A DNA stretch of 64,000 nt. It comes from a virus. The DNA lies in the IMG/VR virus record IMGVR_UViG_3300035698_017305, positions 1-64,000 of that record. One strand, written 5' to 3'. The notes below the pieces were generated by a model, which was not told where the DNA came from, ran no database searches, and worked only from the letters and a program-made list of their open reading frames with translations. Shown piece by piece: positions 17,832 through 53,036 of the stretch. How positions within the stretch are numbered: position 1 is the stretch's first letter; every line of letters begins with the position of its first letter. A program made the position numbers and the translations under genes.

Positions 17832-17906
17832 TGCCCGTGGAGGGATTTGAACCCCCGACACAGAGTACTAGAAGCTCCTGCTCTAACCAGACTGAGCTAC
17901 ACAGGC
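17832..17906 (-). tRNA. tRNA with CUA anticodon (amber suppressor-type)
   Basis: GCCTGTG/CACGGGC acceptor, canonical D and T arms, 5-nt variable loop; loop TT-CTA-GT at 32-38; C31.A39 mismatch. Confidence 0.75.
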
Positions 17907-17909
17907 TTA

Positions 17910-18033
17910 TGGCGGCGGGAGGAATTGAACCTCCAACCTTCCTAGTCCGTCCAGTGTTCCCAAATCAACAGCATTTGACTACGTGTTGTTTGAAGGACGC
18001 CAAGGATGCATCTACCAATTGAGCTACACCGCC
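17910..18033 (-). ncRNA. tRNA-like RNA with anticodon loop replaced by a long hairpin
   Basis: GGCGGTG/CGCCGCC acceptor, D arm, T arm GGAGG-TTCAATT-CCTCC; TCCT/AGGA stem extended by CGTCC/GGACG and CAAACAACA/TGTTGATTTG. Confidence 0.7.
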
Positions 18034-29589: not shown

Positions 29590-30660
29590 CATAGGGAATG
29601 GAGTTACTCGGCAAGAAGCCTACACAGGTCTCGAATCTGGGATTCAGTATTCACCTTTTCGGGTACTGGGTTGTTCCCCTATCCCACTTGCCGCCAATCC
29701 GCGTGTCCCTATTCTGAGTACGATACCACAAGTGTGCTGTCACGCCAAAGAACATGTCATCTCACTCCTCGTGACCCGTCTACCCACATCCCTTTTGAGA
29801 AGCGAAGGAACGGATGTAGGACCGGTGTGTCTCCGGTAGGCGTGGCATGCCCGAGTTTAACCTAACTACGCAGCCGTAGTGTGGCCGGACATGTCAGCAG
29901 TACCCTTGCAGGAGCCCCTATCAGGCACACCCGGAACTCATTCGACAACCACGGCCAATGTGGCGGCAAATGACCGGACCTTTAGTTCTCTCCCTACGGG
30001 CCTGTGCGATCACAAAGGTTCACTCATTATAGGCAACCCTTCAACCCCACTGATACTAAGGTTGTTGGGAAGGGACGGTTAATTCCATCCTGGCTGCTTC
30101 TAAGCCCACCTCCTGATGGTATTCGTACCACAGACTGGGTTGTGAGTTTCCAGCTCACGTCCCGCCTGATTATTGATTAGTGACAGCATAGGTGTGCTGT
30201 TACGCCAAAGAGAAACCCCTTTCCTGTCGCTGAAGGTTACCTGTCCCTAGGAGACTGGTAGGGTTACTTCCACATTTACCCAAGCCTTGAAGTTCACATC
30301 CTGTTACCAGACACACTCCGTTCCTCGCTTGGTGCTTCGTCTCACTCCTTAGAAGCGACTTGACATCCAGAGATGTCAAGAAGGGACAGTTAATTCCGTC
30401 CTGGCTGCCTCTATGCCAACTTTCCTATGCTATCGAATGGGTAGGTGGTCTTTCAGATATTTTTGCATACTTTTTGACATTTAAACAGTTTGTCCATTTA
30501 CACATTACATCCTACACGCCTTACGTCTGCAACATAAACCTTATTAGGGTCGATAGTGTTTGGGATCATATCAATTCGCCTTCACCCAGGAGGCTAGCTA
30601 TACTTTCGGGTATAACGCCTACTCGTGCTTAGGCACGTCTTCTCTTACTCAACCCGCCTA
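29590..30660 (-). ncRNA. Large (~1 kb) structured ncRNA, GOLLD-like candidate, with two 23S-rRNA H43/H44-like domains
   Basis: No credible ORF; many stems; repeated GGC(T/A)TAGA(A/G)GCAGCCA...TTTGGCGT(A/G)ACAGCACAC; ends approximate. Confidence 0.7.
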
Positions 30661-46808: not shown

Positions 46809-47017
46809 TGCAAGGGTCCAAGGTACCAGCACCACTGTGTCCGAATCCTTTATGCCGCAATCAGTTCACCATACGAGTGAAGACTGTGGCAGGTGGGAAG
46901 CGCGCTGAATACATCTGTCCTAAATGCGCGGAGTCTTTTGAGATTCCTCGTGTTGTTATGGGGGAACCCAACCTAAAAAGAAGGGGGAGCACCATTGGCT
47001 CTCCCCCCTCTGACTAA
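46808..47017 (+). CDS. Small Zn-ribbon protein
   Basis: CPNPLC...CPKC. Confidence 0.6.
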   Translation: MQGSKVPAPLCPNPLCRNQFTIRVKTVAGGKRAEYICPKCAESFEIPRVVMGEPNLKRRGSTIGSPPSD

Positions 47018-47664
47018 CTGAACAGGTTGTAGGCAGTCATCTTCATGTCTTTCAACGTGAACATGTATCCTAGGTACTCGTCGTTGTCTATAAACCGGCA
47101 TATAGCCTCAGCCATCATACCCACAGTGAAGTGTACTAGGTTACGCGCAAGTGGGTACTCACACACATCCAGTCCGTCCTCTTCAACAGCGGGTCGTTTA
47201 AACCTAGGGTTCCAATACACCTCGGAGTAACCTTGAGCGGCCATCCCTCCGTGTAAGCAGGGCACCACACCATTTCCGCATGTGTCATGGATTAGTTGCC
47301 GGGAGTCCCAGTTGTCAAACGCATCCACCACAAGGCGGTTGCCCCTAAGTATCTTGAGTGCGTTCTTTTCAACCAGCCTACACGTCTCTATCACAGGTTT
47401 AACCCGGTATGCTTGGTAGATCATAGCCTGCATCACAGCAGCTTTGTTCTTCCCAATGAACCTCCTTTCAAAGTTCTGGTTACCTAGGTTATGAGATTCT
47501 ATCTTGTCATCATCCAGGAACCTGACGTTATTAAACCCCAGTTGGTACAGGATAGGAATTAGGTTTGACCCTAAAGCCCCCACGCCACACACCATTATCT
47601 GTGAGTTCTTTCTTCGTGTCAGGTCACCTCGATACAACTCCTCATGGGTTAGGGCATCCGCCAT
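47014..47664 (-). CDS. ThiF/E1-like activating enzyme (set 2)
   Basis: CGVGALGS, LDDDKIESHNLGNQ, DAFDNWDSR, CEYP. Confidence 0.9.
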   Translation of the reverse strand: MADALTHEELYRGDLTRRKNSQIMVCGVGALGSNLIPILYQLGFNNVRFLDDDKIESHNLGNQNFERRFIGKNKAAVMQAMIYQAYRVKPVIETCRLVEKNALKILRGNRLVVDAFDNWDSRQLIHDTCGNGVVPCLHGGMAAQGYSEVYWNPRFKRPAVEEDGLDVCEYPLARNLVHFTVGMMAEAICRFIDNDEYLGYMFTLKDMKMTAYNLFS

Positions 47665-48127
47665 TTTTCCCTCTTATCTGCGGTAGACATGCCTGTCCGA
47701 GTATGGAGGCCCCTTCAAAGTAAAGGTTTCGTCCACGCATGGATAGCAGATCTATGCGGTTGTGGATTTGAATTGGTTGCTTATCCGGCAGGGGTAGAAA
47801 CAGGAAACACCCTATGGTTTGGAAGTCACCAGACGCTGATGCGATGATACATAGCAACGGTCTTCCCAATGCTATTGCCCACCCTGAGTGAGTCCTATGG
47901 TCTGTAGCACTCCAGTGCACGCCCCCACCCGGTGGATGCGTATGCAAGAAGCCAATGAAGTCACTGTGGGGTACAGACAGTTCGTGCAGTCTTTCCATAG
48001 TGACTTCAAAGTCGAAGTTAGCCGGTCCGTTGTCAGTGTAATCAATAGGTATCTTCTGGAGGAGGTGCTCAGCATCTATAGCCTCAGCGAAGTGCAAGGT
48101 CCATCCTAGTTCCCGGAACCTAGTCAT
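47642..48127 (-). CDS. JAB/MPN peptidase (set 2)
   Basis: GFLHTHPPGGGVHWSATD. Confidence 0.8.
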   Translation of the reverse strand: MTRFRELGWTLHFAEAIDAEHLLQKIPIDYTDNGPANFDFEVTMERLHELSVPHSDFIGFLHTHPPGGGVHWSATDHRTHSGWAIALGRPLLCIIASASGDFQTIGCFLFLPLPDKQPIQIHNRIDLLSMRGRNLYFEGASILGQACLPQIRGKNGGCPNP

Positions 48128-48890
48128 AGTAGACACCCCGATTGACCAGACCGCGTTTAGCGGCTTCTATAACCTGGGGGCTGACTCCCAGCTCATCCAT
48201 CATCTGTGAGGTGTGTAGGTTCCGTTCCACTATCATAGAGAACACTCTCCGCTCTAGGTCAAGCTGCTGTACAGCCTCAGTGAGAACTGTAGTCACGCCC
48301 TCACTGGATGTAACAGCCCGTACCGTACCACCAGTTGGGGCTGCAAACTCGGCGAATGCTTCCTCCAACGGTATATCGTGGTGTCCATGTACACATAGGG
48401 CGTGAATGATCACACCTTTCTTCTCAAATGCGGATGACACGTCATCCTCTGTGATACCTTCCCCCTGAGGGTAATGGTCATACTCCTTGTACTTGGGGAT
48501 CCCGTGTTGAGGGGCGTCACCAACCAGTATGCAGTACTTAAGGGAGTGCTCCCTCCATGGGTACTTCAGCGAGGCCGCCAACCCAGTCAGTACTGCCTCA
48601 GGAGCGTCAGCCCCTCCACCAGCGGTGAGCTTACGGATCATAGGTCCCACTTCGGATACCGGGACTAACCTACCATCCGTCATGTCCTTAACTATCCAGG
48701 CATCTGTGAAGTCTCGGTAGGCTGTCACCCCAACTTTGATGTCGGTGTCGGTGTCCTTGGCTACCTTGTTGATCATGCTGAGCATGGTTGTTTTGCAGTA
48801 TTCTAGATCTCTACCCATGGATCCAGTGGCGTCTAAGCAGAACACCAAATCCAGGGATGAGATGTTCTCTTTTTCACCAATCGTATTCAT
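48120..48890 (-). CDS. vWA-domain protein
   Basis: LVFCLDATGSM, YRD, GGGADAPE, LVGDAPQHG; start approximate. Confidence 0.9.
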   Translation of the reverse strand: MNTIGEKENISSLDLVFCLDATGSMGRDLEYCKTTMLSMINKVAKDTDTDIKVGVTAYRDFTDAWIVKDMTDGRLVPVSEVGPMIRKLTAGGGADAPEAVLTGLAASLKYPWREHSLKYCILVGDAPQHGIPKYKEYDHYPQGEGITEDDVSSAFEKKGVIIHALCVHGHHDIPLEEAFAEFAAPTGGTVRAVTSSEGVTTVLTEAVQQLDLERRVFSMIVERNLHTSQMMDELGVSPQVIEAAKRGLVNRGVYYD

Positions 48891-49743
48891 CATCATCTCC
48901 GTCATCATCGTCATCTCCAATAGAGTCGGCCCCGTTGGTCCCGGGAACGCTCACTCTGTAGATCAGTTTTCTACGTTCCCCCTCAGCCACTACGCTTCCT
49001 AGTGCGGTTAGGTCATACACCTTGTCGGTACCATTCAGACATATCCCGGCGTTTACCACCTGGAAGTTAGTCTTTCTGACCCTGGTGAAGTAGGGGTTGC
49101 CAGCCCTAGACTTCCATTCGATCACAAGGTGGTCTCCTTGGTCCATCAGACGCATGAGCTTTCCGCCTGAGGCTAAGAGAGCGTCTCCTACCAACTCCTC
49201 TACAGATTTCTTGCGCCGTGCTTTCTCGTGCTGTACAGCCATGGCTAGGGCTAACAAGTCTGTGGGGGTCATGAACTTGGCTTTCTCTACAGTACCTGCC
49301 TTGAACATCTCTAACATGACAGGGGTTTGATCGAACCCTATCCCAGCAGGTTCCCAGTAGTACCAGTTGGTATGATCGGAGGCTACCCTGACCACATCAA
49401 ACCTTTCCGCACCCTCGACCAAGTGGATCGGAATGATCTCATCGTTCCAGGCACCAAACCAGATGCCGTCTTCTTCATAGAACAAACGTACATTAGCCTT
49501 CACAGGGAGGCACTTCAGGTAGTCGTCCTTCTCTATCTCATCTGCGGGCCGTTGAATTCTTAACCAAGGGGGAGCACATCTGAACAGATGCCACCCATGA
49601 GATGGATTACCCTGCACCTTGAGGGTTACCAGGGTCTTGTCCATTATCACTTTGATGCGCCTACTCCCTAGGAAAGGAGCTACCACGTCAGTAGGTGGTT
49701 TGGCACGCTCCTTTTGGATCATCTTTTCGACAAGACTATCCAT
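48874..49743 (-). CDS. Hypothetical protein of the Ro60/E1 operon
   Basis: 289 aa; C-terminal GICL.G.D..YDL.AL. Confidence 0.75.
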   Translation of the reverse strand: MDSLVEKMIQKERAKPPTDVVAPFLGSRRIKVIMDKTLVTLKVQGNPSHGWHLFRCAPPWLRIQRPADEIEKDDYLKCLPVKANVRLFYEEDGIWFGAWNDEIIPIHLVEGAERFDVVRVASDHTNWYYWEPAGIGFDQTPVMLEMFKAGTVEKAKFMTPTDLLALAMAVQHEKARRKKSVEELVGDALLASGGKLMRLMDQGDHLVIEWKSRAGNPYFTRVRKTNFQVVNAGICLNGTDKVYDLTALGSVVAEGERRKLIYRVSVPGTNGADSIGDDDDDGDDDEYDW

Positions 49744-49784
49744 AGGACTCTCCTTTCATTGTTTAGGAATGTGTGGGTAGGGAG

Positions 49785-49858
49785 GGAGAATGACGGGATT
49801 CGAACCCGCAGTACCTGGAGTCACAGTCCAGTGCCATAACCGTTAGGCTACACTCTCC
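49785..49858 (-). tRNA. trnH: tRNA-His(GTG) with G-1:C73
   Basis: CTGGA-CTGTGAC-TCCAG; 8-bp acceptor. Confidence 0.95.
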
Positions 49859-49887
49859 ATAAATTCTCCGCCCCCTACCCACACTAA

Positions 49888-51606
49888 TTAGGCTGCTCTA
49901 TCGTCTACGGGCAGTGGTGTGTCCATGATCTCTTGCAGAGTGTTCCTAAGAGTTCTGCGAGACAGGAACCTGATAACATCCGGGACCGCAATGAGGTCAG
50001 TGCTGTCGTCCAGGTTGAACACTTGAATGGCGGTGCCAGCGGTGGCCGCAGCATCACGTACACAGCGGTGTCTCTTGTCTTCCAGACTGCCCCACCTTCC
50101 CAGTTTAATCAAGCAAATACTTACCTCATCTGATCCAGGAGGAGCCGTCTCCAGATACTTGGGCCACACATCCGGGAACCGAGGAGCACTATTCTCTCCT
50201 TCATCCGTGATGATAATGACGTTTTCCGCAAAGTCACCACTCCTCATCATCTCGTCGATGCCTACACCAACAGAGGTGGATCCAAGTGCTCTTACCCTAC
50301 GGAACGCCGTAGTCCAGTCCTGTAGCGTACCTCTGCCCGGTACATTGATCTTGTCGGCTTTCACCTCGAAGGTGTATGTGTGCAGAGGAGTACCCGCAAC
50401 CATGGAGGCCGAAATCATAGACCCCAAGGTCTTGGCCAGCTCGATTGCAGCACCCATGGACGTACTACAGTCAACCAGAAGAACGGTCGGCTTGTTGATA
50501 ACCTTCTTGACGCGGGCGTCAGACACTTGGAGAATTTTCTCCTTGATATCTGCGCTGACAGCGGTAGATTCCGCAGCTTTCACCGCCTTTAAGGTATCAA
50601 CCCGACCAGACTTCTTGGCCTTCTTCAGTCGAGACTCCAAGAGCTTGGCAAGGTCCGGGTTGTCCCATGCACCTTTCTTCCTGAATGCTTCCACATTCAT
50701 CAGAAGCTCCTGAGGAGACATTACACTGATCAGTGCTGCCATAACAGCAGGAGTCTGAGTAGTCACCGAGCCTACCGCGATTGGGTAGGGGATTTTGTAC
50801 TTGGCGATCAATTCAGCCTGCTCAGCAGGGTCACTTGTGGTACTCAGCACCTTCTGGTAGTACAGCTTAGGAGTCCTGTGTTCGAGTGGATTCTTCTCAA
50901 ACAGGGCTGACTGTACCCATCCAACTGGTGGTGTATGCGTCCAACTGTACAGAGACTTCAGTGCGCTACCAGCTCTGACAGCGATGGCATCAAACATTTC
51001 TGTGTTGTCCTCCAGGTCACGGAGTAGGCCACCCACAACCTTGCTGACCCTCTTAGGAATGTTCTTAGCTCCCGGGATACCGGTTACCTGGAACACTGAG
51101 GTCATGTAGGTGCCGTCCCGATTCTTCTCAAACCGGAGGTCTGCATCTTTTGCTCTGGGAATCTTGGCTTTGACCAACCTCAGGAATGCTTCCCGTTCCG
51201 TAGCCGTGGAAGTGCCGTTCCGTAGCTTTGGGTTTAGGTCCGTCTTTGCCTTCATGATGTCCTTGTCGTCAGACAATTTCACCACAACCTTACCTTCCTT
51301 GAGCAGGTTGATGATCCGGTGAATCTCATACACTGGGAACCTGGGCAGTAAGGCAGCCCCAACATCCCTGAACAGGACGTCATCAGGCATACCTCGGAGT
51401 AAGTACGCTGTCATCAGTTCCTTGTGATCCCGGATCTCCGTGTTGTCCATGGCCCATACAGCGAGGTGGGCGAAGAATTCCGGGTCCGCTTCGAACATTG
51501 TCCGGAATAACTCATGAGATCCCTTGCCGATATTCCGGTGTGGAGTACTCATGAAAGCCTTTAGCATGTCCAATCGGACATCAGCTTCTCTGGTTTCGGT
51601 CGCCAT
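49888..51606 (-). CDS. Ro60-like TROVE + vWA RNA-binding protein (divergent)
   Basis: Helical N-terminus (DPEFFAHLAVW..IRD), SPQELLMNV, C-terminal vWA LVDCSTSM, GSTS, IITDEGEN; SD AAGGAG. Confidence 0.75.
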   Translation of the reverse strand: MATETREADVRLDMLKAFMSTPHRNIGKGSHELFRTMFEADPEFFAHLAVWAMDNTEIRDHKELMTAYLLRGMPDDVLFRDVGAALLPRFPVYEIHRIINLLKEGKVVVKLSDDKDIMKAKTDLNPKLRNGTSTATEREAFLRLVKAKIPRAKDADLRFEKNRDGTYMTSVFQVTGIPGAKNIPKRVSKVVGGLLRDLEDNTEMFDAIAVRAGSALKSLYSWTHTPPVGWVQSALFEKNPLEHRTPKLYYQKVLSTTSDPAEQAELIAKYKIPYPIAVGSVTTQTPAVMAALISVMSPQELLMNVEAFRKKGAWDNPDLAKLLESRLKKAKKSGRVDTLKAVKAAESTAVSADIKEKILQVSDARVKKVINKPTVLLVDCSTSMGAAIELAKTLGSMISASMVAGTPLHTYTFEVKADKINVPGRGTLQDWTTAFRRVRALGSTSVGVGIDEMMRSGDFAENVIIITDEGENSAPRFPDVWPKYLETAPPGSDEVSICLIKLGRWGSLEDKRHRCVRDAAATAGTAIQVFNLDDSTDLIAVPDVIRFLSRRTLRNTLQEIMDTPLPVDDRAA

Positions 51607-51653
51607 ATGACTTTCTCCTTTTCATTTCTGGACCGCTACCGTTTTATAGGTAT

Positions 51654-51714
51654 AAAAAAAGATCGCAGGAAGTCACCGAGGTAGGTCCAATACCACGGAA
51701 GTGCTTGCGATCTT
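51654..51714 (-). terminator. Long hairpin plus T-tract between RNA array and Ro60-like gene
   Basis: AAGATCGCA...TGCGATCTT followed by TTTTT on minus strand. Confidence 0.6.
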
Positions 51715-51746
51715 CCCCATGTGGGGACTGTCTAATGAATATGGTT

Positions 51747-51825
51747 AGAACAGCTAGCTAGTCGTGGGAACCGTTGTTTTTCGCCAAATGAAAATGTATG
51801 TTCCGACTGTAGGGCTAGCTGTTCT
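51747..51825 (-). ncRNA. Y-RNA-like unit 1: scaffold only, no tRNA module
   Basis: 12-bp outer stem AGAACAGCTAGC; CCTAC-AGTC-GGAAC-ATACA ... GTTCC-CAC-GACT-AGC. Confidence 0.75.
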
Positions 51826-51842
51826 TTTCTGACTTGGTTTCT

Positions 51843-51982
51843 GGGGTAGCGAGTCTGTAGGCCCAATTGATTTGTTAGTCTGATCCGTAGTCAGATGCCT
51901 TAACCACTTGGCCACATATGATTTCTCACATGATGGGATTCGAACCCACGTTAAAATGTATGGCCCACATGTAGGGCTACCC
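51843..51982 (-). ncRNA. Y-RNA-like unit 2: permuted tRNA T-acceptor-D-anticodon (ACG)
   Basis: GTGGG-TTCGAAT-CCCAT; CATGTGA-GAAA-TCATATG; TGGCCAAGTGGTTAAGGC; TCTGA-CTACGGA-TCAGA. Confidence 0.85.
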
Positions 51983-51999
51983 TAGAACTGTATAGTGTT

Positions 52000-52149
52000 T
52001 TTCGAGAGTGCTAGTCGAAGGACCCATTGTAAAACTGGATGCTCTACCATTGAGCTACTTGGGCTCAAGCCCAAGACAGGAATTGAACCTGCGCCTTCCC
52101 CTTGGTATGGGACGTTTGTGTATGGCCCGTCTGTAGGGCACTCTCGAAA
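52000..52149 (-). ncRNA. Y-RNA-like unit 3: permuted tRNA (anticodon ACC)-T-acceptor-D, YrlA-like
   Basis: TCCC-ATACCAA-GGGG; GCAGG-TTCAATT-CCTGT; CTTGGGC-TTGA-GCCCAAG; TAGCTCAATGGTAGAGC. Confidence 0.85.
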
Positions 52150-52163
52150 TTGTGTATAAATGC

Positions 52164-52317
52164 TATGGAACTAGCGAGTCGTAAAGCCCATTGATCTTTA
52201 ATCGCTTGTGCTAAATACAAGTGCCTTTACCAATTTGGCCACTCTGGGTGAGCCCCAGAGGAAGGATTCGAACCTCCAAAATGATATGTATGGCTTAACT
52301 GTAGGGCTAATTCCATA
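52164..52317 (-). ncRNA. Y-RNA-like unit 4: permuted tRNA T-acceptor-D-anticodon (TTA)
   Basis: GGAGG-TTCGAAT-CCTTC; CTCTGGG-GCTCA-CCCAGAG; GCCAAATTGGTAAAGGC; CTTGT-ATTTAGC-ACAAG. Confidence 0.85.
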
Positions 52318-52334
52318 TTGAAACTGTTAAGGTG

Positions 52335-52464
52335 CGGCTAGCTAGTCGAGAGACCCATATTAGGTACACCGAGGTGGAATTGAACCACCGACTTTTTGCT
52401 TAATAGGCAAATGCTCTATCCAACTGAGCTATTGGTATGTATGGCCTAACTGTAGGGCTAACCG
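52335..52464 (-). ncRNA. Y-RNA-like unit 5: unpermuted Asn-like cloverleaf (ATT) inside scaffold
   Basis: ATACCAA/TCGGTGT-ACCT; GCTC-AGTTGGATA-GAGC; TTTGC-CTATTAA-GCAAA; GGTGG-TTCAATT-CCACC. Confidence 0.85.
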
Positions 52465-52492
52465 AACCTATATTTGATTTCCAAAGAACTGA

Positions 52493-52664
52493 ACATTAGA
52501 GAAGATGGGGCAGCTAGTCGAGAGATCCCAAGTAACTTAACTAAGCTACTCCCCCGTAGTGGTGGGGGAGGCTGGAATTGAACCAGCGACACTTTACTTT
52601 CACGTAAATGCTCTACCATTGTTTGTATGATCCAACTGTAGGGCTACCTCATCATCTCTAATGT
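52493..52664 (-). ncRNA. Y-RNA-like unit 6: tRNA opened in the D loop (Phe-like GAA)
   Basis: GGTAGAGC; TTTAC-GTGAAA-GTAAA; GCTGG-TTCAATT-CCAGC; CTCCCCC-ACCACTAC-GGGGGAG; TAGCTT. Confidence 0.85.
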
Positions 52665-52674
52665 CAAAGAATTA

Positions 52675-52810
52675 AACTGTGAGCGGGTAACTAGTCGAAG
52701 GGCCTTTGTAACGTTCTGCTTCATCAGCAGCCCCCGTATGGTGGAGGCTCAGGGAGTTAAACCCCGAACTGTTATGTACGGTCCCACTGTAGGGTTACCC
52801 CGTCACAGTT
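52675..52810 (-). ncRNA. Y-RNA-like unit 7: T arm plus closed Ala/tmRNA-like acceptor
   Basis: CGGGG-TTTAACT-CCCTG; AGCCTCC-ACCATAC-GGGGGCT (G3.U70). Confidence 0.8.
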
Positions 52811-53036
52811 ATTTACCGAACTTACCGTCTGGCCTCAAGTGTACTGTGCCGGACGCTTCAAATGGGTCTGCAACAAACGAGTTGAATGTTGAGACGTCTT
52901 TGCTGAGTGCACCGGCTACTGCCAGCTTAAGGTCTGCTTCATCGAAGACATCTCCTAAGTCCAACTCCTCCACTGGGAGTGTTTGGGATTGTCCGTCAAC
53001 GAACACGTTTATGAATTGGAAGTTATTACGTTCCAT
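52809..53036 (-). CDS. Small ubiquitin-like (beta-grasp-type) protein ending FG-K
   Basis: 75 aa after SD AAGGAG; INVFVDGQSQTLPV...GTVHLRPDGKFGK; same operon as JAB/E1 set 2. Confidence 0.6.
   Translation of the reverse strand: MERNNFQFINVFVDGQSQTLPVEELDLGDVFDEADLKLAVAGALSKDVSTFNSFVADPFEASGTVHLRPDGKFGK

Follow-up and report, generated by a model that had tools for sequence, protein, structure and literature searches.

The stretch studied here (the window) is the first 64 kb of the 132.8-kb IMG/VR virus record IMGVR_UViG_3300035698_017305, which is approximately 71% complete and also encodes 15 ordinary tRNA genes and a transfer-messenger RNA (tmRNA). On the minus strand, positions 51747-52810 hold seven RNA units in tandem, which share a common handle and carry a tRNA-derived cargo that differs from unit to unit. 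The array lies upstream of a gene for a Ro60-like protein, on the same strand, with 141 nt between the array end and the start codon. DNA identical to the array is present in salt-lake metagenomes; comparison with DNA contigs of four salt-lake runs yielded identical low-depth pieces and no variants. A look for RNA sequencing runs that contain the stretch returned none. A megablast search of the array against GenBank phages found no relatives, and blastn returned only generic tRNA pieces. At gathering score, Rfam recognized tRNA (in the unit called u5 below) as the only family within the array. At E≤10, YrlA, tmRNA_permuted and twister-sister were listed, all below threshold, which we read as partial likeness or chance. 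The units follow in the order of the minus strand, for some with scores of R1, a covariance model built from twelve cargo-less units and containing only the two handle helices as structure.

52675-52810, minus strand: u7, handle with a T-like arm (loop UUUAACU), a closed 7-bp acceptor mimic and a small hairpin; the acceptor has G3:U70, A73 and CCA in its closing loop, is tmRNA/tRNA-Ala-like and gives a weak tmRNA_permuted match
52496-52661, minus strand: u6, handle with a D-loop/3' D-stem piece, anticodon arm (GAA), T arm, closed acceptor and 5' D-stem piece
52330-52469, minus strand: u5, handle around a complete unpermuted cloverleaf with anticodon AUU (60.8 bits; R1 29.8 bits)
52164-52317, minus strand: u4, handle with a T arm, closed acceptor (loop GCUCA), class-II-type D arm, anticodon arm (UUA) and a short extra hairpin
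52000-52149, minus strand: u3, handle with an anticodon-like hairpin (loop AUACCAA), T arm, acceptor closed by UUGA, and D arm (R1 26.5 bits)
51839-51987, minus strand: u2, handle with a T arm, closed acceptor (GAAA loop), class-II-type D arm and anticodon arm (ACG)
51747-51825, minus strand: u1, handle with a 5-bp stem and the 7-nt loop AUUUGGC, no tRNA body (R1 54.3 bits, E 6e-11, z -4.9)

A first-pass annotation, made from the sequence without database searches, had proposed seven minus-strand units on a shared scaffold, and the arm motifs, a 20-nt pattern and the pairing in every unit bear this out. The 5' arm motif CCCTACA occurs seven times on the minus strand (52794, 52643, 52457, 52306, 52138, 51976 and 51814) and alternates regularly with seven copies of the 3' arm motif GACTNG (52696, 52519, 52347, 52180, 52016, 51855 and 51763). 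Over the whole 132.8-kb record the 20-nt handle pattern gave six matches on the reverse strand, none on the forward strand and none for a reversed control, and R1 matched in the array only. With its filters off, R1 scored cargo-laden units lower (12-16 bits) than with default filters and left u2-u4 unlisted; these were verified by hand. In a segment table of all seven units, seven or eight of the eight outer-stem pairs and all five pairs of the inner helix (four in u7) are formed, and compensatory changes distinguish the stems among the units. On the 5' side the 8-bp outer stem is followed by CCUACA, three variable letters, one strand of the 5-bp helix and R-UACA; the 3' side runs back through the partner strand and three letters to GACU(A/C), after which the outer stem closes. 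In all seven 5' arms the sequence is ...GC-CCUACA-GUN-NNNNC-AUACA, without a GNCGAAN0-1G motif. Folding z-scores of the seven units ranged from -1.9 to -4.9, and single-sequence folds gave the handle in five of them. A scan of the array for sigma-70-like promoters found none.

A covariance-model search near genes for Ro60-like homologues, as the first-pass annotation had suggested, revealed that in both phages and bacteria the handle accompanies the protein and lies on its strand. R1 found 60 units in 27 sources (the window, 22 phage contigs and four other homologue-bearing contigs), and 59 of these units lie on the gene strand. A set of 80 bacterial loci, taken from at least 421 Ro60-like homologues in GTDB species representatives, gave 193 units (191 on the gene strand), usually two to four and at most eight per locus. 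The bacterial carriers belong to Planctomycetota, Cyanobacteria, Chloroflexota, Armatimonadota, Desulfobacterota and Acidobacteriota, and homologous loci include those of Nostoc linckia NIES-25, Moorena producens 3L and Gemmata sp. IIL30. Arrays of two to eight units occur in many Cyanobacteria, Planctomycetota and Chloroflexota and are thus peculiar neither to the source phage nor to phages. When five huge phage genomes (1.94 Mb) were searched in full, 27 of 29 R1 matches shared the strand of the homologous gene and lay upstream of it at a distance of no more than 5 kb. At least 13 handle units precede the homologous gene of the 595-kb megaphage LR756511, two units with T-acceptor-D cargo that of a planctomycete-like metagenome-assembled genome (MAG), and one short unit that of a cyanobacterial contig.

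Two peculiarities of LR756511 were observed. One handle unit seems to be nested within the cargo of another (L012:2036-2300), and successive units are linked by GAUAC-GAAA-GUGUC, so that the outer stems could pair either locally, as an inter-unit hairpin, or over a long range.

In alignments fitted to the covariance model, the handle helices were paired in 93.4% of cells in the phage set (64.8% after shuffling) and in 96.2% of cells in the bacterial set (76.7% after shuffling). Double changes occurred in 13 of 13 handle pairs, and slid controls gave 29-53%. Strong covariation of the scaffold in homologous loci was therefore found in both helices and in both sets. The handle begins with an outer stem of 8 bp or more and continues with an asymmetric internal loop, in which 5'-CCNAC(N) faces 5'-RACUN; then come a helix of approximately 8 bp and a NUACA junction. 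The consensus of 60 + 150 units contains CCNAC and NUACAAAC and lacks GNCGAA. At the junction, NUACA(AAC) faces (N-CCA)-AAACA, and the cargo beyond often opens with an acceptor-like helix AAAC/GUUU. A 3-nt bulge with 5' AGU/3' ACU pairing, part of the initial description of the scaffold, has to be abandoned: across 60 homologous units it was 45% paired and no compensatory change was seen. The supposed bulge letters instead pair with 5' letters beside the inner helix (73% paired, many double changes), and for one such pair, 50 of 55 units show pairing, by five types of base pair. Since the internal loop CCNAC(N)/RACUN is conserved in sequence, it is a natural candidate for a protein contact. 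Handle-loop identity was 0.71 within arrays versus 0.66 between arrays, a difference too small to argue co-evolution.

That each unit carries a different cargo was also part of the first-pass annotation, and it is upheld in substance by dissection by hand, by runs of ARAGORN on doubled cargo, by an element finder and by Rfam. The order T arm, closed acceptor, D is found in u2, u3, u4, u6 and u7, and in all of these except u7 an anticodon-type loop of 7 nt is added; the cloverleaf of u5 is not permuted, and a tRNA body is missing from u1. In u2 and u4, which have a 7-bp acceptor and a 3-bp D stem, the handle occupies the place of the long variable arm. In u3, with the anticodon-like triplet ACC, it is inserted between the D and anticodon arms. 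Unit u6 is either a tRNA opened in the D loop or an anticodon-T-acceptor-miniD arrangement with a local mini-hairpin as D arm; its acceptor loop, ACCACUAC, holds ACCA. The cloverleaf of u5 is tied to the handle via its acceptor end, has an acceptor A.C mismatch, A1-U72 and a rare anticodon, and carries CCU in place of CCA. Unit u7 lacks an anticodon arm and is wired like YrlA. Several graft points on the tRNA body are thus real in the array, and they recur in other loci. U8, A14, G18G19 and the T-loop UUCRA are all kept in u2-u6, which makes an L-shaped fold plausible. Of the six tRNA-like units, five (u2, u3, u4, u6 and u7) have a loop that closes the acceptor, and u5 alone has open acceptor ends; the free acceptor ends, 7-bp acceptor and decoding anticodon of a functional tRNA are not found together in the units of the array.

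The loop of u1, AUUUGGC (51776-51794), is identical in a cargo-less unit of the unrelated megaphage (L012:4612-4679), where it sits on a different stem (AAAC/GUUU; UUUUC/GAAAA in u1), and related UUUGG loops occur at L035:2043 and L037:3892.

Across the family, 214 units were sorted by cargo. Approximately 50 carry short hairpins and approximately 50 unpermuted tRNA-like modules; 34 lack a T arm, 36-38 have a hairpin or anticodon arm followed by T, closed acceptor and D, and 15 have T, closed acceptor, D and anticodon. All wirings of the source array are matched elsewhere, for example that of u3 in Moorena units with an ACG loop and that of u2 and u4 in six phage units. Because wirings recur across phyla, we read them as designs and not decay. 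In many unpermuted modules elsewhere, 5-bp acceptors are fused to conserved AAAC/UAC junction letters, whatever the anticodon, and about half carry CCA.

Other RNAs lie close to some of the homologous genes. Short RNAs adjoining the Ro60-like genes of an Armatimonadota MAG (L062:3614-3696) and of N. linckia (L117:6345-6400) match positions ~1077-1160 of the bacterial large-subunit (LSU) rRNA model with 54 and 52 bits (cut-off 50), and a partial match to tmRNA lies at L117:1309-1392. These loci may include mimics of other translation RNAs as well. In the Armatimonadota MAG, a tRNA array is combined with the handle-RNA array: close upstream of the Ro60-like gene, two handle units flank nine tightly packed, free-standing tRNA genes (51-71 bits; L062:2720-3826).

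The gene downstream of the array is the following.

49888-51606, minus strand: Ro60-like protein, 572 amino acids, helical-repeat ring plus vWA domain by fold

Pfam and NCBIfam scans gave no match, TROVE (PF05731) included, either for this protein or for its bacterial homologues. Against PHROG it matched phrog_850, 'RNA-binding protein' (8e-10). A search of IMG/VR with the single protein found no relatives; a profile search did. A profile built from 27 homologues (29-38% identical) matched Ro60, TROVE and Rsr entries of the PDB at 1.5e-7 to 5.5e-4. We also modelled the protein with AlphaFold2 (predicted local distance difference test 80, predicted template-modelling score 0.66). In a Foldseek search of the PDB, the best 11 matches of the model were all Ro60, Rsr or TROVE chains (E 6e-10 to 1e-7), with alignments of 540-610 columns over the whole length and template-modelling scores of 0.4-0.6; the best was 9KOP. 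The profile match and the predicted structure together indicate that the protein is Ro60-like by fold and cryptic by sequence, as the first reading of the locus had supposed. Having no TROVE match, the bacterial homologues would have been missed by the TROVE-based survey of Chen et al. 2014.

From 53036 to 47014 on the minus strand, the order is a candidate ubiquitin-like (Ubl) open reading frame (ORF), the RNA array, a hairpin with U7, the Ro60-like gene, a tRNA-His, and genes for a protein that we call X, a vWA protein, a JAB-like peptidase and a ThiF/E1-like protein. Apart from the array, the Ro60-like gene and the tRNA, these features are:

52809-53036, minus strand: small ORF, 75 amino acids from ATG, ending ...RPDGKFGK, candidate ubiquitin-like or sulfur-carrier protein
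51653-51713, minus strand: long hairpin followed by U7, terminator-like (z -3.0), between u1 and the start of the Ro60-like gene
48874-49743, minus strand: protein X, 289 amino acids, predicted OB-like barrels in tandem, followed by a small C-terminal domain that contains an invariant Cys (GICL)
48120-48920, minus strand: vWA protein
47642-48136, minus strand: JAB-like peptidase (weak match)
47014-47664, minus strand: ThiF/E1-like adenylyltransferase

The stop codon of the small ORF overlaps the first unit of the array (the u7 side). Its homologues, with the ending ...RPEAVFG, occur within or next to the arrays of 23 loci; in LR756511 (L012) the ORF sits in the middle of the array. The hairpin was missed by a terminator consensus scan because its loop is too large. 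For the predicted OB fold of X, Foldseek support is weak (E ~1e-3), and a search of the protein atlas with X returned nothing usable. PADLOC and NCBIfam scans of the Ro60-like protein, X, the vWA protein and the Ubl-like protein gave no family match, and no E2-like protein was recognized in the operon (47014-53036). The same operon set recurs in phages, Planctomycetota, Cyanobacteria and Chloroflexota. X is present in 24 of 24 phage and 53 of 62 bacterial loci, and ThiF in 18 of 24 and 48 of 62, counts in which absences of neighbour genes are uncertain because the flanks of the examined loci are short. Further neighbours of the Ro60-like gene in relatives are a KptA/Tpt1 2'-phosphotransferase (cyanobacterial contig, L007:6530-7075), an RtcB ligase (phage contig, L015:10029-11429) and a cytidine/dCMP-deaminase-family protein (phage contig, L013:10944-11534); none of the three was found in the source record. 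Elsewhere in the window, 17832-18033 contains a CUA (amber) tRNA, which ARAGORN classes as Pyl, and after it a tRNA match of 124 nt (39.9 bits) that probably contains an insertion. At 29590-30660, Rfam at E≤0.01 listed only a flanking tRNA-Gly, and a mimic of the 23S GTPase centre was not confirmed there.

Taken together, we think it fairly probable that the seven units are small non-coding RNAs of a Y-RNA-like family, whose handle docks on the Ro60-like ring and which display tRNA mimics. Each RNA has two modules. The conserved handle would most likely dock on the downstream ring as Y-RNA stems dock on Ro60, and the variable module, here a tRNA mimic, would be displayed. The handle is grafted at the variable-arm position (u2 and u4), at the D/anticodon junction (u3, perhaps u6) or at the acceptor end (u5), with u7 a YrlA-like form lacking the anticodon arm and u1 displaying an anticodon-arm-sized hairpin alone. 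Such particles would show tRNA-shaped surfaces with distinct anticodon loops to tRNA-recognizing factors. Together with the OB-fold protein, vWA, Ubl, JAB and E1, they would probably act in tRNA/RNA quality control or repair during infection.

Several points weigh against this interpretation. What the analysis demonstrates is how the RNAs are built, that their helices covary, that they are linked to the protein family and which fold the protein has; binding of the handle by the Ro60-like protein, discrete RNAs and a downstream function are inferred. The handle lacks a 5' GNCGAAN0-1G or GGUCCGA-type motif, such as known Ro60 proteins contact, so the argument for docking comes from genetic linkage. 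The linkage of X and ThiF is almost as tight as that of the Ro60-like gene, and either could be the real partner. The loci were fetched via the protein, and co-occurrence of handle and protein is therefore partly built in; the whole-genome handle searches soften this retrieval bias and cover six records. The alignments, being fitted to the model, lean towards its structure. Finally, u5 and the unpermuted units elsewhere could be excised as tRNAs.

Bacterial and mycobacteriophage YrlA and YrlB, with their protein Rsr, are an obvious comparison, YrlA being the nearest of the known families. YrlA, which Rsr binds, mimics a tRNA whose acceptor is closed (PMC4201824; bioRxiv 10.1101/312249). The array resembles these RNAs in joining a terminal stem for a Ro60-type protein to a tRNA-like module with a closed acceptor, and in lying beside the gene on the same strand with more than one RNA per locus. 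It falls within the distance used for YrlA (RF02553), up to about 4 kb from a Ro60 orthologue on the same strand. The T-acceptor-D order of u7 and u3 is shared with YrlA, and some of the acceptor loops could be opened by RNase P. Membership of the YrlA family itself is not supported: the best Rfam score, that of u3, was 36.4 bits against a gathering cut-off of 69 (u6, 25.2; u2 region, 16.2), homologous bacterial units scored 37-46 bits, and the 5' GNCGAAN0-1G is absent. The conserved letters of the handle are CCNAC/RACUN/NUACA instead. Most units of the array have a real anticodon arm, whereas YrlA has none, and the handle is grafted at several tRNA positions, with seven units here and approximately 20 in other phages. 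The protein also differs from Rsr in having no Pfam TROVE match and in an operon with Ubl/E1/JAB where Rsr has RtcBA.

In Thermus phage phiLo, Ro60 binds two upstream Y-like RNAs (PMC12135203; PDB 9KOP, 9L5Y). As here, a phage encodes a Ro60 with Y-like RNAs directly upstream of the gene. However, there are two RNAs (Yrl1 and Yrl2), which are defined by a bulge CGAA motif and for which no tRNA-like cargo is reported, and the phiLo protein is approximately 14% identical to the Ro60-like protein in a structural alignment. In the RYPER complex of Deinococcus radiodurans (Rsr and PNPase), the Y RNA Yrn1 tethers the Ro60 ring to an effector, a likeness in principle. Yrn1 has partial tRNA-like features in a wiring order unlike that of YrlA (PMC4201824), but it is one main RNA with a metazoan-like Ro-binding helix, no array and no complete tRNA mimic. 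The resemblance of the 3' arm to metazoan Y RNAs, which the first-pass annotation had noted, turned out to be superficial: the Rfam scan at E≤10 listed no metazoan Y-RNA family, and the bulged helix GGUCCGA/UUGACU is not present. Rotated tRNA parts with acceptor ends joined by a short loop are also known from the permuted tRNA genes of Cyanidioschyzon merolae and from two-piece tmRNA, which u7 and u6 additionally resemble in their tmRNA/tRNA-Ala-like ...CCACCA acceptor ends (weak tmRNA_permuted matches). In contrast to C. merolae, the array has no bulge-helix-bulge, the handle having internal loops of 5-6 nt around an 8-bp helix instead of a 3-4-3 arrangement. In contrast to both, the rotated tRNA is clamped by a conserved handle, one array has several rotation points, and cargo-less units exist. 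According to a review of jumbo phages, some phages have a ROT/TROVE protein with a tRNA-like partner. A full-text literature search, with the locus tables of Chen et al. 2014 outside the comparison, found no description of the handle, of arrays with multiple graft points or of the link to Ubl/E1/JAB. The handle RNAs look like an uncatalogued branch of Ro60/Y-RNA particles.

The tRNA-like modules could also be explained if the handle were a leader-trailer helix that directs processing and the units matured to working tRNAs. Unpermuted units would be released by RNase P and 3' trimming, and permuted units by cleavage, circularizing ligation and opening of the acceptor loop, as in Cyanidioschyzon. 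The good cloverleaf of u5 is as expected of such a cassette, as are the N-CCA directly after the acceptor in about half of the unpermuted units of other arrays, the canonical anticodon loops (U33, purine 37) and the ACCA in the acceptor loops of u6 and u7. The anticodons ACG, UUA, AUU, GAA and ACC are all missing from the 15 free tRNAs of the phage, and in Mycobacterium smegmatis YrlA is cleaved by RNase P and acquires CCA (PMC4201824). However, the acceptors of five of the six tRNA-like units are closed by loops of 4-8 nt, the ends once joined would keep an unstructured linker of more than 20 nt, and the bulge-helix-bulge that leader and trailer of permuted tRNA genes form for the splicing endonuclease is missing. 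RtcB or KptA/Tpt1 adjoins the homologous gene in some loci, but neither was found in the incomplete source record. Moreover, about a quarter of the units in the family are cargo-less, many of the supposed tRNAs combine 5-bp acceptors with the same AAAC/UAC start regardless of anticodon, the A34 anticodons AUU and ACC are not normal decoders, and carrier bacteria already have full tRNA sets. We regard maturation to working tRNAs as unlikely; given the truncated or closed acceptors, the modules fit better as mimics.

Mimics, in turn, might serve as bait. The anticodon loops could absorb or sense tRNA-cleaving defence nucleases, or each unit could recruit a different tRNA-binding enzyme. Varied anticodon loops on otherwise non-functional tRNA bodies would suit such a library, as would the setting in a phage with its own tRNA set and tmRNA, and the LSU rRNA fragments (L062, L117) and tmRNA-like piece (L117) near homologous arrays would fit in as well. 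On the other hand, such arrays are also frequent among free-living bacteria, for which a role against defences is less evident, and PADLOC assigned the Ro60-like protein, X and Ubl to no defence family. We consider this use of the mimics improbable.

A bolder proposal, to which we give little credence, is that the ring, the handle RNAs and the Ubl/E1/JAB/OB-fold set form one machine in which RNA-targeting toxins are detected or lured away by a library of anticodon-bearing mimics of translation RNAs, comprising tRNAs in several wirings, tmRNA-like ends and, in other loci, an LSU rRNA piece. Ubl conjugation would be tied to the cleavage or capture of a mimic; alternatively, the E1 would even join the C-terminal Gly of Ubl to CCA-bearing RNAs. 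If true, this would be an RNA-guided guard system common to huge phages and bacteria.

It is very unlikely, in our estimate, that the handle's partner is another product of the operon (X or the Ubl/E1 pair) and not the Ro60-like ring. Ubl/E1 sulfur relays acting on tRNA are established, and the pair here might, like TtuB/TtuC or Urm1/Uba4, thiolate the tRNA-like modules, or Ubl might be attached to RNA. The frequent presence of X and ThiF in the loci, the small ORF ending in FG inside or beside the arrays, and the modelled OB-like barrels and invariant Cys of X all agree with a partner of this kind. Yet the weak Foldseek match of X and the short flanks, which leave absences uncertain, reduce the force of these observations, no PP-loop thiouridylase was seen, and docking of Y RNA on Ro60 has direct precedents whereas the X and Ubl/E1 alternatives have none. 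Repeat debris or pseudo-tRNAs were rejected because of the covariation and the conservation across phyla.

A question in the Ro60 field is what purpose the tRNA-like module of bacterial Y RNAs serves; published papers say that it may bind an unknown factor. As Y-RNA-like RNAs with a probable docking handle, the units described here extend the Ro60 picture to as many as 7-20 RNAs per locus, to mimics that retain anticodon loops, and to a handle placed at several defined tRNA positions. The retained anticodon loops and the varied handle positions suggest that identity and orientation of the displayed tRNA matter, and the family supplies natural variants for testing what reads the displayed tRNAs. 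The tRNA counts of huge phages and some bacteria are probably inflated by handle-borne mimics, and the alignments could serve as the basis of an Rfam family for the handle. The Ro60-type protein itself, invisible to Pfam TROVE, is encoded in many huge phages as well as in the GTDB species representatives with homologues. Its linkage to Ubl/E1/JAB and to an OB-fold Cys protein points to an unstudied coupling of RNA surveillance with protein (or sulfur) transfer.

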